Part shown: one piece after another, positions 1 to 6,110 of the stretch
How the letters are laid out: each line of letters starts with the position of its first letter
How positions within the stretch are numbered: the first letter of the stretch is position 1
IMG/VR virus record: IMGVR_UViG_2802429249_000009
DNA: 28,641 nt
Reading direction: 5' to 3' (one strand)
Source of the DNA: a virus
Lineage: Duplodnaviria; Heunggongvirae; Uroviricota; Caudoviricetes
The notes under the pieces: model-generated
What the model was told of the DNA's origin: nothing
Seen by the model: only the letters and a program-made list of their open reading frames with translations
Database searches by the model: none
Made by a program: the position numbers and the translations under genes

Positions 1-53
1 CCAGCGACCAGCGACCAGCGACCAGCGACCAGCGACCAGCGACCAGCGACCAG
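1..53. repeat. Perfect tandem heptanucleotide repeat (CCAGCGA) x7 plus partial unit CCAG; array runs off the 5' window edge
   Basis: Read directly: units at 1-7, 8-14, 15-21, 22-28, 29-35, 36-42, 43-49, then CCAG at 50-53. Lies in the open frame 1 that continues into the RM enzyme gene. Confidence 0.95.
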
Positions 54-2103
54 TAAATCCAGAAAGACGGTAAAATCGGTTGAGCCGCAAATTTCCGACC
101 TCGCGAACTCATGGCTTAAATCTTACGGGCTTGATTACAGGCTGGAGCAGGCACCACTTAACAGCGAGATAGATAACGCCCTAGACGCCTATTTTTCGAA
201 AAATGGCGGCGCAGGTGGTAACCGTCCCGATGTAAAACTCCTTATTCAGGACAAATACGGCAGGCAGTATCCCGTCCTCATCGAATACAAAGGCTATAAA
301 GACAGGCTTATCCGGCTTGACAGTAACGGTATCATCGAGAATAAAGATTCCAGAAAAGAATGGAACTTTAAAAACATTAATGGATATGCGGTTAATGGTG
401 CAGTCCATTATGCTAACGCACTTCTCCAGTTTACCAACTACCCAGATATTATTGCGATCGGTATGACAGGCTGGTGCGATGATGATACAGGAGAACTTCA
501 TCATGAAATTGGCGTGTGGCATGTATCAAAGAATAATTTAGGGGCCGGGCAGAAGGTTGGTGAATACACTGATCTGTCGTTCCTTGCGGATAAAAATGTT
601 GACGGATTTATCGACAAGATAAAGCACCTTAATCTGCCGCCTGAGGAACTGGAAAAAATTAAGGCCAGCAAAGAGGAAGAGATAGACACTCGACTTTCCC
701 GTCTGAACAACGATATTTATCAGGATGAAAATGGGCTTGGCGAAAGTGATCGGGTTTATCTTGTTGTGGCCACGGTTATTGCCACTCTGGGTATTCCCGG
801 AAAACTTACCCCATTGGATAAAAGCGAGCTTGTATCTTCAACGGAAGAAGGGGAACGTGATGGCGATATTATTTTCAGAAAAGTTAGGAATTTTCTTACG
901 ATAAAGGGCGTCCCGAAAGACAAAAAGGATATGATCCTTCGTACTATGCAGAATACGCTGTGGACTGAAAATATTAATAAACCTGTCGATGGTGAAAGTA
1001 AGTTAAAACAAGTATTTATTAAAATTGTTAATGACCTGGGGGAATACTACAAAATCGGACTGACGACCGATTTTACCGGAAAGCTGTTTAATGAGATGTA
1101 CCGCTGGTTAGGGTTTACTCAGGATAAGCTGAACGATGTTGTTCTGACACCACCTTATGTGGCTACATTGCTGGCCAGACTCGCCAGAGTTAACCGGGAT
1201 TCGTATGTGTGGGATTTTGCCACGGGCTCTGCCGGGTTGTTGGTGGCTGCAATGAATGAGATGCTTATTGATGCCAGAGAGAACATTAACTCACCGGATG
1301 AGCTCAGACTGAAAGAAGCGAAAATTAAGGCTGAACAGCTACTTGGCCTTGAGAAGTTATCCAGTATTTACATGCTGGCGATTCTTAACATGATCCTGAT
1401 GGGCGATGGCAGCGCCAACATCCTGAACAAAGACTCACTGACCGAGTTTGACGGCAGATATGGTTTTGGTAAACCGGGAGAGAAATTTCCGGCTACTGCA
1501 TTCGTGCTGAACCCGCCATATTCAGCGAAAGGTAATGGTATGATCTTCGTGCAGAAGGCTCTTTCAATGATGGAAGGGGGGTATGCCGCGGTGATTATTC
1601 AGGGGTCCGCAGGTTCAGGTAAGGCGAGGGAGTACAACCAGAAAATACTTCAGGAGAATACGCTACTGGCCAGTATAAAAATGCCTGCTGATTTGTTTAT
1701 TGGTAAATCAAGTGTCCAGACATATGTTTATGTATTCCAGGTGAAACTGCCGCACAATTCAAAACATCCGGTGAAGTTTATCGACTTTTCGAATGATGGT
1801 TATGCCCGCTCGAACCGGAAAAAGGCACGAAACAACCTTGTGGATGTGGATCGTGCAAGAGAACGCTATCAGGAAGTTGTTGATTTGGTGCATTTTGGCA
1901 GAAGCCGCCTCAGTATATTTACGGAAGATGAATATTTTGAGGAGGTGATAGATCCACTCCGGGGGGACGACTGGAATCAGACAAAGCCTGTGGATACCAG
2001 GCCAACACTGGATGATTTCAAAAAAACGGTGAGTGACTACCTTGCGTGGGAGGTGTCGCAATTACTGAAAAAGCAAGGTAAAAACAATTCTGTGGGAAAG
2101 TAA
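1..2103 (+). CDS. Restriction-modification enzyme, fused PD-(D/E)xK nuclease + gamma-class N6-adenine DNA methyltransferase (Type IIB/IIG-like); 5'-partial, start lies upstream of window
   Basis: Frame 1 is open from base 1 to TAA at 2101-2103, with no ATG/GTG/TTG in frame before 463. Nuclease signature RPDVKLLIQDKYGRQYPVLIEYKGYKD is encoded before 463. Methyltransferase motif I (VWDFATGSAGLLVAA) precedes motif IV (AFVLNPPYSAKG), the gamma-class order. Motif recognition only. Confidence 0.75.
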   Translation, partial: PATSDQRPATSDQRPATSKSRKTVKSVEPQISDLANSWLKSYGLDYRLEQAPLNSEIDNALDAYFSKNGGAGGNRPDVKLLIQDKYGRQYPVLIEYKGYKDRLIRLDSNGIIENKDSRKEWNFKNINGYAVNGAVHYANALLQFTNYPDIIAIGMTGWCDDDTGELHHEIGVWHVSKNNLGAGQKVGEYTDLSFLADKNVDGFIDKIKHLNLPPEELEKIKASKEEEIDTRLSRLNNDIYQDENGLGESDRVYLVVATVIATLGIPGKLTPLDKSELVSSTEEGERDGDIIFRKVRNFLTIKGVPKDKKDMILRTMQNTLWTENINKPVDGESKLKQVFIKIVNDLGEYYKIGLTTDFTGKLFNEMYRWLGFTQDKLNDVVLTPPYVATLLARLARVNRDSYVWDFATGSAGLLVAAMNEMLIDARENINSPDELRLKEAKIKAEQLLGLEKLSSIYMLAILNMILMGDGSANILNKDSLTEFDGRYGFGKPGEKFPATAFVLNPPYSAKGNGMIFVQKALSMMEGGYAAVIIQGSAGSGKAREYNQKILQENTLLASIKMPADLFIGKSSVQTYVYVFQVKLPHNSKHPVKFIDFSNDGYARSNRKKARNNLVDVDRARERYQEVVDLVHFGRSRLSIFTEDEYFEEVIDPLRGDDWNQTKPVDTRPTLDDFKKTVSDYLAWEVSQLLKKQGKNNSVGK

Positions 2104-2162: not shown

Positions 2163-3239
2163 TTGTTCAATGTGAGCACTGGTTCGCTTATTTCCTCAGG
2201 GAGATTAAAACCTGGCAAAATTAAACGTGTTTCAGCAAAGAGCGAACAAAATGGCATCATAGGAGAATTTGATACGGAGTTTATGGATGATGCAAGACAT
2301 TATGAAAATTTCATAAGCGTTAATTTCTTTGGAGATGCTTTTTATCATCCTTATTGTGCCAGTGTCGAAATGAAGGTACATGTTCTTACATTAAAATCAA
2401 ATAAGTCTGGCTTTAATACAAAGTGCGGATTATATATTACCAGTATGATTAATAAAACTTTAAAAGGGCGTTTTAATTATGGTCAACAGTTATCGAGTTC
2501 CAAACTTAGGAATGGAGAATATTTCATAAGGTTACCGGTAAAAAATAATGTAATTGACTGGGATTTCATGGATGATTATATAGAAGAGCTGGAAGCGGCC
2601 CACATAGAAGAGCTGGAAACATACATGGTTGCTGCTGGACTGAGCGATTACCAACTCACGGAAAAAGATCATCTTATTCTGGAGCACTTTAAGGATGTTG
2701 AATTTTCAGGTTTCCCTGTTACTGAATTATTCTCTGTGTGCAATACGAGAAACATATTGTCCAGAGATATCACAGAAAACAGCGGAGATATTCCTTATCT
2801 TTGTGCCAGTCGTGAGAATAACTCTGTCAGTACTTATATATCCTATGATTCTTCTCTCTTGGAGAAAGGGAACTGTATTTTTATTGGTGGTAAGACATTC
2901 GTTGTAACTTATCAGGAAAGAGACTTTTTTTCAAACGACAGTCATAATTTACGACTTTATGTTAATAACGAAGATGGTAGAACAATGTTTACTCATTTGG
3001 GGCTAATTACATGTATTTATAAATCTATTTCACATAAATACTCTTGGGGTAATAGTGTTAGCAATAAAAAAATCAAAAATGATGTTATCTGGTTGCCAGT
3101 AAAAAACAAGTTACCCGACTTTTGTTATATGCATAACCTTATTTCAGTCATGCAGAAACTCGTCATCAAAGATGTCGTCCAGTACGCTGATAAAAAACTG
3201 GCAGCGTACAGGCATGTTACATCTGAAAAAATCGATTAG
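2163..3239 (+). CDS. RM specificity (S) subunit with two target-recognition domains (HsdS / BcgI-B-like); N-terminus uncertain
   Basis: Frame 3 ORF with two variable blocks separated by a helical spacer (DYIEELEAAHIEELETYMVAAGL). TTG 2163 preceded by AGGA is the first canonical start, but the frame is open from 2082 and a TRD-entry-like motif (FPLSDKLKSVEWGEFRIGDLFNV) lies upstream of 2163. Second half is markedly AT-rich. Confidence 0.7.
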   Translation: MFNVSTGSLISSGRLKPGKIKRVSAKSEQNGIIGEFDTEFMDDARHYENFISVNFFGDAFYHPYCASVEMKVHVLTLKSNKSGFNTKCGLYITSMINKTLKGRFNYGQQLSSSKLRNGEYFIRLPVKNNVIDWDFMDDYIEELEAAHIEELETYMVAAGLSDYQLTEKDHLILEHFKDVEFSGFPVTELFSVCNTRNILSRDITENSGDIPYLCASRENNSVSTYISYDSSLLEKGNCIFIGGKTFVVTYQERDFFSNDSHNLRLYVNNEDGRTMFTHLGLITCIYKSISHKYSWGNSVSNKKIKNDVIWLPVKNKLPDFCYMHNLISVMQKLVIKDVVQYADKKLAAYRHVTSEKID

Positions 3240-3592: not shown

Positions 3593-3668
<76 letters not shown>

Positions 3669-3671
3669 TAT

Positions 3672-3746
<75 letters not shown>

Positions 3747-4012
3747 GAGAAACAAGCCTTATTGTATCGTGGCACTGGCGTATTTTTTATTACGTGGGGT
3801 GGGTTGTTTAAAAAAGACATTCTGTTCTCTGACTATGATTGGAGGTCGGTTGTAGTCACAGTGCTAATTTTTTACGGCAGCAGAATGGTGCATTATCGGT
3901 GGAGATTTTGTATTTCCTGGCAGGGTCGGTGATGCATCATTCTGGTGTTGTAAATAACACCATGACATTGAGATTAATCATATATTAAACAAAACCTGGA
4001 AATACATCCTTA

Positions 4013-4037
4013 ACCGCCTCTACCGGGCGGTTTTTTT
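4013..4037 (+). terminator. Rho-independent terminator after the tRNA pair
   Basis: ACCGCC (4013-4018) pairs with GGCGGT (4026-4031), followed by a run of 7 T (4031-4037). Confidence 0.55.
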
Positions 4038-4059
4038 ATTCTTAATTCAAAAAAAGAAA

Positions 4060-4084
4060 ACACGGACACTGATAATGTCCGTGT
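4060..4084. repeat. Perfect 9-bp inverted repeat with 7-nt loop (ACACGGACA-ctgataa-TGTCCGTGT)
   Basis: Read directly; no T-run follows, so more likely an operator or RNA hairpin than a terminator. A smaller GGCAATGCC palindrome follows at 4085-4093. Confidence 0.8.
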
Positions 4085-4321
4085 GGCAATGCCATGTAAG
4101 TCAGCGATGAATATGGCGCCAAAAAAGCGCGGCTGTCGGATTAACGCCGCGGGACAAAGTCCATGAAGAATAATAAGTATCAGCCTCCTACAGGAGACGA
4201 GTTGATATTACTAAGCTTTAAAAATGGTTTAAATCCTCAGATTAACCTTAATTTCAGGTAAGTCTTATTTCATTTCTTCGCGCCACGCCCGGCGCACATC
4301 AAAAACCACAGAGCCTTTCAG

Positions 4322-4390
4322 GGGTGAGCTTACGGGATGGTCAGTGTGACTTTCTCTGTGGGCTGGTCACCCCCGGGCGGAGGCTCACCC
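4322..4390 (+). promoter_or_regulatory. Structured leader immediately upstream of the TerB-like gene
   Basis: GGGTGAGC (4322-4329) is the exact reverse complement of GCTCACCC (4383-4390), enclosing nested palindromes (GTGAC/GTCAC, CCCGGG). Ends 5 nt before the AAGGA Shine-Dalgarno of the 4410 start. Fold not computed. Confidence 0.4.
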
Positions 4391-4409
4391 ACTAAAAGGA
4401 AAAGTCACG

Positions 4410-4835
4410 ATGTTTGGTATTTTCAAAAAGAAAACCCGCAAGGCCATTACTGAAGTGAAGAAGATGGAGAACCGCGACGCAGTGGAGGCGACCGTCTGGG
4501 GTGCGTATTCCATTGCATACGCTGACGGCACCTGCGACGCGAAAGAAATCGCAGTACTGGAGAAAACCATTGCAGCACTTCCTGCCTTTGCGCCGTTCTC
4601 CGGCGAGATTGCACAAATGAGTGCAAATATCCGCGCCCGTTATGAAGCGTCGCCGCGCTCTGCCAATGCTGAAGCCCTTCGTCAGCTGGCTGATGTTGCC
4701 GGTACTGATGATGCAGTTAATGTACTGTGCCTGTGTCTGGATATCGCTGACCAGGATGGCATTGGTCCGGATGAAGAAGCACAGCTCAAGAAAATTGCGC
4801 AGGCGCTTCAGCTACCGCTGGAGCAGTACCTGTGA
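4410..4835 (+). CDS. TerB-family protein (tellurite-resistance TerB-like domain), 141 aa
   Basis: ATG 4410 with AAGGA 9 nt upstream. The protein has the two TerB-type helical segments with acidic Asp-Gly motifs (AYSIAYADGTCDAKEIAVLEKTI and CLCLDIADQDGIGPDEEAQLKKIAQAL), matching the pattern I remember for plasmid TerB. Needs HMM confirmation. Confidence 0.7.
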   Translation: MFGIFKKKTRKAITEVKKMENRDAVEATVWGAYSIAYADGTCDAKEIAVLEKTIAALPAFAPFSGEIAQMSANIRARYEASPRSANAEALRQLADVAGTDDAVNVLCLCLDIADQDGIGPDEEAQLKKIAQALQLPLEQYL

Positions 4836-4984
4836 AAAGTGCGCGCCTTGTGCTGGCTGCCATCCTGCTGTTTCTGGTAGTGGCGGTGGATTTCACCGGA
4901 CGGCTGATGTCGGTGCTGGCAGATGGTGTGCTGGTGGCGGCTGTGCTGGCCGTACTCTGGCCTTTACTGCGTAAATCTGAATAA
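4832..4984 (+). CDS. Small hydrophobic protein, 50 aa, two predicted TM helices; translationally coupled to the TerB-like gene
   Basis: GTG 4832 overlaps the TerB TGA (GTGA). Product VKSARLVLAAILLFLVVAVDFTGRLMSVLADGVLVAAVLAVLWPLLRKSE. Below the track length cut-off. An internal ATG would give only 25 aa. Confidence 0.4.
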   Translation: MKSARLVLAAILLFLVVAVDFTGRLMSVLADGVLVAAVLAVLWPLLRKSE

Positions 4985-5072
4985 CACCACACAAAAGGCA
5001 TCTGCGGGTGCCTTTGACGGGGTGTTTTTTACGGGCCGCTGGTGGCCCTTTTTTATTTACAGGAGAAAAAGT

Positions 5073-5465
5073 ATGTCTGAACCCTTATCCGGTTCCGGCA
5101 CGGCTGCGGCGCTCGGCGGGGCGACGGTATTCGGGCTGTTTACCGGAACGGATTTCGGGATTGTGTTTGGTGCGTTCGCCGGGGCGTTATTTGTGGCAAC
5201 GATGCCGCAGACGCTTTCAGCCTGGCGTGTGGCAGCGCATTTTCTGGTGTCGTTCATTATTGGCGTGCTGGGAGCAGAGGTTCTGGCATCCTGGCTGGTC
5301 AGGCATACAGAGTTTGACGGTGCACCTGTCGACGCATTGTGTGCAGTACTGGTGTCAGTGGTGTCGGTGAAGATTCTCTCGTTCATCCACCAGCAGGATA
5401 TTGCATCACTGGTGTCCGGCCTGTTCTCCCGCCTGCGGGGGGGAGGAGGCGGTAATGTTAAGTAA
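5073..5465 (+). CDS. Holin-like membrane protein, 130 aa, about 3 TM segments (glycine-zipper rich)
   Basis: ATG 5073 with AGGAG 7 nt upstream; track ORF 4923-5465 same frame. Hydrophobic glycine-rich segments, position directly upstream of the endolysin. C-terminus RLRGGGGGNVK is encoded by a G7 tract. Confidence 0.55.
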   Translation: MSEPLSGSGTAAALGGATVFGLFTGTDFGIVFGAFAGALFVATMPQTLSAWRVAAHFLVSFIIGVLGAEVLASWLVRHTEFDGAPVDALCAVLVSVVSVKILSFIHQQDIASLVSGLFSRLRGGGGGNVK

Positions 5466-5730
5466 CCTTCCCGGATTACTGAATGTGGCGTTATGCACGG
5501 TTATCGTGCTGACGCTCTTTTTTTATCGTCGCCGTGATTCCAGACATAAACCGCTGATGTCATGGCTGGCCTGGCTGCTGATGCTGCTGTATGCCTTTGC
5601 GCCCCTCAGCTATCTGTGTGGTCGCCCGTTAGCAACGGGCTGGCTGGAAGTGTTTTTTAACCTGCTGTTCTGCGTGCTGGTGATACGCGCACGCGGGAAC
5701 GTCACAAAAATCTTTCCATTGTTGAGGTGA
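5455..5730 (+). CDS. Second lysis-cassette membrane protein, 91 aa (holin or antiholin candidate)
   Basis: ATG 5455 overlaps the end of the preceding gene; three hydrophobic stretches; stop 2 nt before the endolysin start. Confidence 0.5.
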   Translation: MLSNLPGLLNVALCTVIVLTLFFYRRRDSRHKPLMSWLAWLLMLLYAFAPLSYLCGRPLATGWLEVFFNLLFCVLVIRARGNVTKIFPLLR

Positions 5731-5732
5731 AT

Positions 5733-6110
5733 ATGTCGGGTAAATTTAGATTTAGTCGTCGCAGCGAAAAGAATCTGGAGGGCGTTAAACCACAGCTGGT
5801 TGCTGTCGTTCGCCGTGCGCTGGAGCTGACGGAGGTTGATTTCGGTATTACGGAAGGGCTACGCACGAAAGAACGCCAGAAACAGCTGGTCGCGGAAGGG
5901 AAAAGCCAGACCATGAACAGTCGCCACCTGACCGGTGATGCGGTGGATGTTGTTGCCTGGGTTGGCAGCCAGGTGTCATGGGACTGGCCTCTGTACGAGA
6001 AAATCGCGCAGGCATTTAAGCAGGCTGCCGCAGAGCTGGGAACTGCCATCGAATGGGGCGGGGACTGGAAAACACTGAAAGACGGACCTCACTTTCAGTT
6101 GAAACGATGA
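5733..6110 (+). CDS. Endolysin, L-alanyl-D-glutamate peptidase (peptidase M15 family, T5-type)
   Basis: Conserved blocks shared with T5-type M15 endolysins as I recall them: KFRFSRRSEKNLEGVKPQL, VRRALEL, DFGI, HLTGDAVD, GGDW, GPHFQL. ATG 5733 after GAGGTG; the track starts at GTG 5727. Confidence 0.88.
   Translation: MSGKFRFSRRSEKNLEGVKPQLVAVVRRALELTEVDFGITEGLRTKERQKQLVAEGKSQTMNSRHLTGDAVDVVAWVGSQVSWDWPLYEKIAQAFKQAAAELGTAIEWGGDWKTLKDGPHFQLKR

Follow-up and report, generated by a model that had tools for sequence, protein, structure and literature searches.

The gene pair at positions 4410–4984 of the virus record IMGVR_UViG_2802429249_000009 of IMG/VR (28,641 nucleotides (nt); this whole stretch of analysed DNA is called the window below) is, by sequence comparison, a copy of a mobile phage cassette that was first named tciA/tciB in phage P1. 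The upstream product showed 86% amino acid identity (80% DNA identity for the gene) to P1 TciA and the downstream product was 49% identical to P1 TciB, both being DUF3927 proteins, and both phages share the order of the genes, the overlap of start and stop codon and the presence of tRNA genes beside the pair. The two copies also differ. P1 has a further gene, tciC, for a 35-amino-acid peptide with a single transmembrane (TM) segment, which is absent from the window, where the pair ends 88 nt before the first holin gene and these 88 nt contain two hairpins only and no listed open reading frame (ORF). The overlap is a 1-nt ATG overlap in P1 and a GTGA in the window, and the P1 genes belong to the early, C1-repressor-controlled ban operon, beside the helicase gene ban, whereas the window copy is found in a Q-dependent late region before the holin gene. 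The features of the pair are as follows.

4410–4835, + strand: tciA homologue, 141 amino acids, ATG start, coding for a cytoplasmic TerB-fold protein.
4832–4984, + strand: tciB homologue, 50 amino acids, GTG start, coding for a DUF3927 membrane protein.
4820–4835, + strand: coupling junction with GGAG at 4820–4823, GTG at 4832–4834 and TGA at 4833–4835, read directly from the sequence.

The ORF listing and direct reading of the letters were in agreement with an earlier note on this DNA (the sequence-only reading), which had described a 141-amino-acid ORF at 4410–4835 whose stop codon overlaps the GTG of a 50-amino-acid ORF. A Shine-Dalgarno sequence, AAGGA (4396–4400), lies 9 nt before the ATG of tciA, and the GTG start of tciB and the stop codon of tciA share the tetranucleotide GTGA, with GGAG 8 nt upstream of the GTG. 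This 4-nt overlap of start and stop was retained at 88 of 94 related loci, in support of the proposal, made from the letters, that translation of a tiny hydrophobic protein is coupled to that of tciA. Since the median ratio of nonsynonymous to synonymous substitution rates (dN/dS) across 62 distinct copies was 0.056 for tciA and 0.35 for tciB, both genes are, on these alignments, genuinely coding and under purifying selection.

TciA is a soluble TerB-fold protein that belongs to the TerB family by hidden Markov model (HMM), fold and motifs. It matched the Pfam TerB profile (PF05099) with 32.4 bits (cut-off 24.4; E = 1.2e-7), the match being split over two stretches, and PHROG 632 ("tellurite resistance") over its full length (E = 4e-65). 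Searches against Protein Data Bank chains with the single sequence and with a profile gave chance-level matches only, and a fold comparison was used instead, by which TciA has the TerB-type helical fold. The acidic "aDG...E" motif occurs twice, as AYADGTCDAKE (residues 36–46) and as IADQDGIGPDEE (residues 112–123), and residues D39, G40, E46, D111, D114 and G117 were invariant among 20 homologues. The TerB-type pattern noticed earlier in the 141-amino-acid product was thus confirmed by profile, fold and both acidic motifs, and the absence of any TerB hit, which had been set as a point for refutation, did not arise, the Pfam match being above threshold. The N-terminus of TciA is basic and hydrophobic (MFGIFKKKTRKA) and disordered in the structure model; its "MFGxFKKK" is conserved across all phage TerB proteins examined.

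TciB matched Pfam DUF3927 with 57.8 bits (cut-off 25; E = 1e-15) and PHROG 1470 ("TciB-like") with E = 9e-25, and its exact 50-amino-acid sequence is present on 382 public contigs. The hydropathy profile showed two hydrophobic stretches (about residues 4–19 and 25–46) with D20-F-T-G-R24 between them and basic residues at either end of the protein. In alignments of the Enterobacterales copies R5, D20, F21, T22, S27, D31 and P44 were invariant; among close relatives the central DFT...S..DG core is fixed and residues 40–46 are hypervariable (dN about equal to or greater than dS).

The two genes were found together in nearly every context. At all but one of the 80 IMG/VR loci retrieved with TciA, tciB directly follows tciA, and at the exceptional locus tciB is truncated, with unrelated sequence in its place. 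When divergent DUF3927 proteins were taken as the starting point, a TerB gene immediately preceded them, again with the overlap. On the P1-like plasmid pP136-6, a P1-type TciB stands beside a TerB protein that is 34% identical to TciA of the window and lacks its cysteines (residues 42, 107 and 109, invariant within the TciA clade). A DUF3927-type ORF follows TerB in the N4-like phages Pollock, As2 and FSL SP-058, the lambdoid PPyecE, the Pantoea phage LIET2 and the Pseudomonas phage ZY21 and, in a more distant form, in the jumbo phages Caitlin and pSal-SNUABM-04 (Machinavirus). A tblastn search of the phage collection with TciB was empty, presumably through low-complexity masking, and a local HMM search of the ORFs that follow TerB was used; scored with our own DUF3927 profile, these downstream small ORFs gave 83 to 19 bits across the phages named. 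On this evidence from sequence, tciA and tciB are co-inherited down to about 30% TerB identity. In the virulent phages of several genera the two genes are mostly unannotated or labelled "hypothetical". The pair lies within or beside a tRNA cluster in four unrelated lineages (P1, lambdoid phages, Erwinia/Salmonella jumbo phages and the Pseudomonas Nickievirus), a co-location that may be due to chance in accessory regions or may be meaningful.

The Vibrio N4-like phage BUCT194 contains, at 424–2426, a weak TerB-like gene, a gene for a TerC-family membrane protein (141 bits) and a clear TerB gene; in the N4-like phages of E. coli and Salmonella, DUF3927 takes the place that TerC has in BUCT194. 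Because TerC sits between two TerB-like genes in BUCT194, TerB plus a membrane partner looks like the general rule, with DUF3927 as the putative minimal partner.

As a description of genes nothing here is new, the pair being long annotated and widespread. The sequence-only reading had presented an uncharacterised module, a label that could not be kept, given that the pair is already in the P1 annotation, in PHROG 632 and 1470 and under RefSeq names, which in E. coli are "tellurite resistance TerB family protein" and "DUF3927 family protein". The finding itself is ordinary, since identical proteins are public as "TerB family" and "DUF3927" and the P1 prototype has been annotated for a long time. 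A megablast search with tciAB alone detected the pair in 352 of 5426 complete E. coli genomes (about 6%), in 165 of them at full length, and tblastn placed TciA on 800 plasmids, 782 of which are non-mobilizable; the latter are P1-like and SSU5-like phage-plasmids. The functional data found are two: in a CRISPR interference screen of P1, tciA, tciB and tciC were non-essential (PMC10695390), and about half of P1 subgroup 1, one subgroup of the P1-like phage-plasmids, has lost the tci operon (PMC9603915). Both speak against a lysis-specific role.

The surroundings of the pair in the window contain the following features.

3593–3746, + strand: tRNA-Thr (UGU) and tRNA-Gly (UCC), from ARAGORN and Rfam.
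4012–4040, + strand: terminator-like hairpin and T-run (AACCGCC...GGCGGTT, then TTTTTATT), downstream of the tRNA genes.
4268–4409, + strand: GC-rich 5′ leader, about 140 nt long; the lambdoid loci are homologous from about 4268–4279 onward.
4983–5030 and 5033–5058, + strand: two tandem terminator hairpins with U-runs (minimum free energy −33.5 kcal/mol, z = −3.3).
5073–5465, + strand: first holin, Phage_holin_8 (Pfam/PHROG).
5455–5730, + strand: second holin, Phage_holin_3_7 (Pfam/PHROG).
5727–6110, + strand: M15 endolysin (Pfam/PHROG).

The late region of the window is phiP27-like, with two holins, the M15 endolysin, an HNH endonuclease, a P27-family small terminase and a large terminase, and upstream of the pair lie the methylase and the specificity subunit of a restriction–modification (RM) system. 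In phiP27 (NC_003356) stx2eA and stx2eB occupy the same interval between the tRNA genes and the first holin gene, before the same order of holin, holin and M15 endolysin, and the same double hairpin follows this stx2e cargo. The cargo itself is unrelated to tciAB, of which phiP27 retains no more than about 95 nt from the 3′ end of tciB, frameshifted by a 1-nt deletion, directly after stx2eB; the remnant and the hairpins (phiP27 about 4960–5130) correspond to 4890–5060 of the window. The same remnant pattern was found in a porcine enterotoxigenic E. coli chromosome (H28). From the tciB tail and both hairpins directly after stxB in phiP27, we infer by sequence comparison that, in an ancestor which carried tciAB, stx2e took the place of tciA and of the 5′ portion of tciB. 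The interval between the tRNA genes and the holin gene is a lambdoid cargo hotspot, in agreement with the accessory ("moron") slot of the sequence-only reading, the same slot in which phiP27 keeps stx2e, and this equivalence shows cargo turnover at a site before the lysis genes. The two putative holin genes, which differ from each other, overlap by 11 nt before the endolysin gene, as in phiP27, and possibly represent a holin and antiholin or a two-component holin.

The pair is directly upstream of a holin gene in about 64 of 80 close relatives. Other relatives have it before unrelated lysis cassettes (an S-type holin with a signal-anchor-release (SAR) endolysin), sometimes with further cargo between. 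In an Enterobacter prophage the pair lies between repressor and integrase genes, in a Yersinia prophage between the repressor gene and KilA-N/Kil, on plasmids that are taken to be SSU5-like phage-plasmids amid RNase T/H, Dam and HD genes, and in N4-like phages in the early regions. Given the occurrence in early operons elsewhere and before unrelated holins, the holin neighbourhood is a property of the slot and not of the cassette, which, as its sequence contexts indicate, has moved among unrelated phages, both temperate and virulent, and into early as well as late operons. A conserved core lysis gene, the finding that had been set as refuting the original proposal, was not what the neighbourhood comparison showed; the pair is accessory.

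A consensus promoter scan detected no sigma-70-like site in 4033–4409, a result that a weak or non-canonical promoter could escape, and no promoter block was conserved upstream of the pair, homology between contexts starting at the start codon of tciA. The leader is 86–99% identical in all lambdoid copies and absent from the P1, SSU5-like, Enterobacter and Yersinia contexts, and it holds nested inverted repeats; it was rejected as a structured RNA, its folding giving z = −1.8 and the outer stem being lost at one locus (L079). Terminators flank the cassette: one (4012–4032) lies downstream of the tRNA genes, in lambdoid copies a terminator often precedes the conserved leader, directly so at loci L073 and L079, and the tandem hairpins, conserved in phiP27 and at loci with other holin types, lie between tciB and the holin ribosome-binding site. 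Because of these terminators and the negative promoter result, the window pair is probably transcribed mainly by Q-antiterminated late transcription. Rfam at the gathering threshold gave the two tRNAs only, and at a relaxed threshold nothing in the tciA leader. Between the tRNA genes and tciA, 3968–4037 (+ strand) gave a sub-threshold match to CyaR/RyeE (28.8 bits, gathering threshold 47, E = 0.008) that covers the whole model and ends in the terminator, and a small-RNA gene is possible there.

The function of the pair is best explained, tentatively and at somewhat less than an even chance, by a membrane-associated two-protein module that acts in lytic growth and conditions or protects the envelope, and that takes no part in the timing or execution of lysis. 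At the inner membrane TciB would serve TciA as partner or anchor, in a possible parallel to TerB with TerC in ter operons and to the TerB and TerC genes of BUCT194, and in keeping with published accounts of TerB as membrane-associated or amphitropic and of its membrane-effector partners in Dionysus and Bunzi; the conserved basic and hydrophobic N-terminus of TciA may help to hold TciA there. Transcribed in the window chiefly in the Q-antiterminated late phase, the pair would form a complex that conditions or protects the cell envelope during lytic growth; candidate roles, both in line with phenotypes historically tied to ter determinants, are the exclusion of superinfecting phages and resistance to agents that depolarise the membrane, for instance pore-forming colicins. 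The complex would neither time nor execute lysis. Protection of lysogens only is unlikely since virulent phages carry the pair, and the timing of one particular holin is unlikely since the context is highly variable. In a bolder form, which is itself rather improbable, TciA and TciB would be a minimal TerB sensor and membrane effector, switched on in the lytic cycle, that excludes superinfection or neutralises a depolarising attack, so that there is no premature collapse of the proton-motive force and no premature holin firing; if true, this would be the first defined molecular role of the TerB domain, in the simplest known two-gene setting.

Several observations weigh against the envelope explanation. 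The AlphaFold2 (AF2) model of TciB (m8042698ff115) is one unbroken 47-residue helix over residues 2–48, predicted with high confidence (a predicted local distance difference test (pLDDT) score of 93), and no hairpin; of the two TM helices claimed by the sequence-only reading, two hydrophobic stretches stand by hydropathy and the division into two helices is not drawn by AF2. D20 and D31 of TciB are replaced in the jumbo-phage versions. If the scan missed a promoter, the tandem terminators behind tciB would also be in keeping with a moron expressed in the lysogen. TciA and TciB gave no family match in PADLOC-DB v2 at E ≤ 0.1, a library which includes Shango and Bunzi and from which Dionysus (2025) is absent. 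In the searchable literature no experimental study of TciA, TciB or any other member was found, and the functional name of tciA/tciB in P1 was assigned by homology only. Prophage PP2 of the enteropathogenic E. coli E2348/69 (NC_011601, 740958–741328) has an orphan DUF3927 gene with no TerB gene upstream; it has a TTG start and has lost the otherwise invariant Ser27, and such unpaired cases (the PP2 orphan and the phiP27 remnant) look like decay. Finally, the only natural TerB-DUF3927 fusion (P0171, 196 amino acids, P1-type) was rejected as evidence of interaction: it comes from a single Logan contig, and its frameshift-like junction, …PLEQLYLMVIKARL…, suggests that one base was gained or lost where the genes overlap, probably by an assembly error.

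The published Hfq-binding small RNA PasD2 begins about 40 nt past the stop codon of the PP2 DUF3927 gene, and the sequence after tciB at loci L017 and L073 resembles the region just 3′ of that gene. The PasA/PasD small RNAs, which are reported near TerB genes and holins, were considered for the window and rejected, their diagnostic sequences being absent.

A rather unlikely alternative is a defence moron that protects the lysogen, expressed from the prophage, in which TciA detects a disturbance of the membrane or of ions that an infecting phage brings about and TciB, as membrane effector, provides abortive infection or exclusion. TerB domains are known from validated defence systems, namely Shango (SngA), Bunzi (BnzA) and Dionysus (DinB, with the pore-former DinC), in each case with membrane-embedded components; a role in membrane surveillance has been proposed for TerB in these systems, and a TerB with a membrane-effector partner has been described in Dionysus and Bunzi. 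The cargo hotspot beside an RM system and the tandem terminators, which insulate the lysis genes in the manner of a moron, also suit this explanation, as does the phage-inhibition phenotype historically tied to ter determinants, as quoted in PMC7371120. However, the helicase, ATPase, MAEBL and four-TM toxin partners of those systems are not found with the window pair, and Shango, Bunzi and Dionysus belong to bacterial defence islands, whereas pairs of the window type are carried by phages, virulent ones included. The N4-like, Pantoea, Pseudomonas and jumbo phages with the pair have no lysogen to protect, and P1 and other prophages keep it in repressor-controlled early operons. A promoter was neither detected nor shared between contexts, neither protein matched PADLOC, and the very strong purifying selection on tciA is unlike that of typical, fast-evolving arms-race sensors.

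The TerB domain has been tied since the 1990s to tellurite resistance, phage inhibition and colicin resistance. It is now found in several anti-phage systems as well, and the present pair, being small, strongly conserved and widespread, is probably the simplest experimental handle on the action of TerB at the membrane.

An ion or metal module is unlikely as well. TciA would bind a divalent cation through its acidic motifs and TciB would be a minimal stand-in for TerC that forms or gates a small cation path, the pair adjusting Mn2+/Ca2+ or similar metal stress in the infected cell, with tellurite resistance as a by-product. TciA shares the Pfam family, the fold and the paired acidic DG motifs with TerB of the ter determinants (terZABCDEF), which has been described in the literature as membrane-associated or amphitropic; the full-length TerB fold, both acidic motifs and the three cysteines of the TciA clade, by which this clade differs from ter TerB, speak for such a module, as do D20 and D31 of TciB, which lie inside or next to the hydrophobic helices, and the membrane transporter family TerC between the TerB genes of the Vibrio N4-like phage. 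In contrast to ter operons, terZ, terA, terC, terD and terE are not nearby and the partner is the 50-amino-acid DUF3927 protein. TerC, TerD and TerZ were not seen among the neighbouring genes scanned (about 4 kb upstream and 2.7 kb downstream), and the flanking ORFs gave no Ter family match, the neighbours being tRNAs, the RM system, holins and endolysin. No such cysteines are present in the other TerB type with which this TciB is paired, and the replacement of D20 and D31 in the jumbo-phage homologues argues in the same direction. Envelope protection or exclusion, drawn by analogy from the ter phenotypes and from the membrane surveillance proposed for TerB, is favoured with modest confidence over ion or metal handling, for which TerC is the model.

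Very unlikely is a regulator of lysis timing, in which the pair, like an antiholin, binds the adjacent holin and delays or triggers hole formation. The position directly upstream of the holin gene, in the window and in most close relatives, and the small, membrane-embedded product that would be co-transcribed with the lysis genes under antitermination had made such a role attractive, and the sequence-only reading had included it. The cassette is, however, also followed by unrelated holins of the S-type with SAR endolysins, sometimes with genes between, and it is far from the lysis genes in P1, the Enterobacter and Yersinia prophages, the SSU5-like phage-plasmids and the early regions of the virulent N4-like phages. 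TciB gave no holin or antiholin family match in the Pfam and PHROG searches, and phiP27 runs the same lysis cassette with stx2e in place of tciAB; lysis control is accordingly disfavoured. Hardly credible is an inhibitor of host cell division in early lytic development, Kil- or Icd-like, in line with the third sense of the P1 name "tci": the P1 annotation places a dicF-like region within the ban operon, about 1.3 kb before tciA, and in the Yersinia prophage some 2 kb separate the early-region pair from the Lambda_Kil and KilA-N genes downstream, but the idea rests on a naming convention, and the proteins have no similarity to known division inhibitors and no reported phenotype.

The record PP818812.1, "Actinobacillus phage vB_Apl-pPE4" (host label Actinobacillus pleuropneumoniae), showed 96% DNA identity to the prophage region of the window. 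Its gene order is that of the E. coli plasmid-like element p727A3-47K, and the assignment to an Actinobacillus host looks doubtful.

The methylase ORF of the RM system spans 1–2103 (+ strand), open from the first base of the window, and the specificity subunit is at 2163–3239 (+ strand). The first 50 nt or so of the window contain an odd in-frame repeat, PATSDQR, in about 2.5 copies. The methylase has an extra N-terminal part with a PD...ExK-like nuclease motif (RPDVKLL...LIEYK), and PADLOC assigned it to Type IIG restriction endonuclease–methyltransferases (623 bits); together with the separate specificity subunit it has a BcgI-like (type IIB) appearance.

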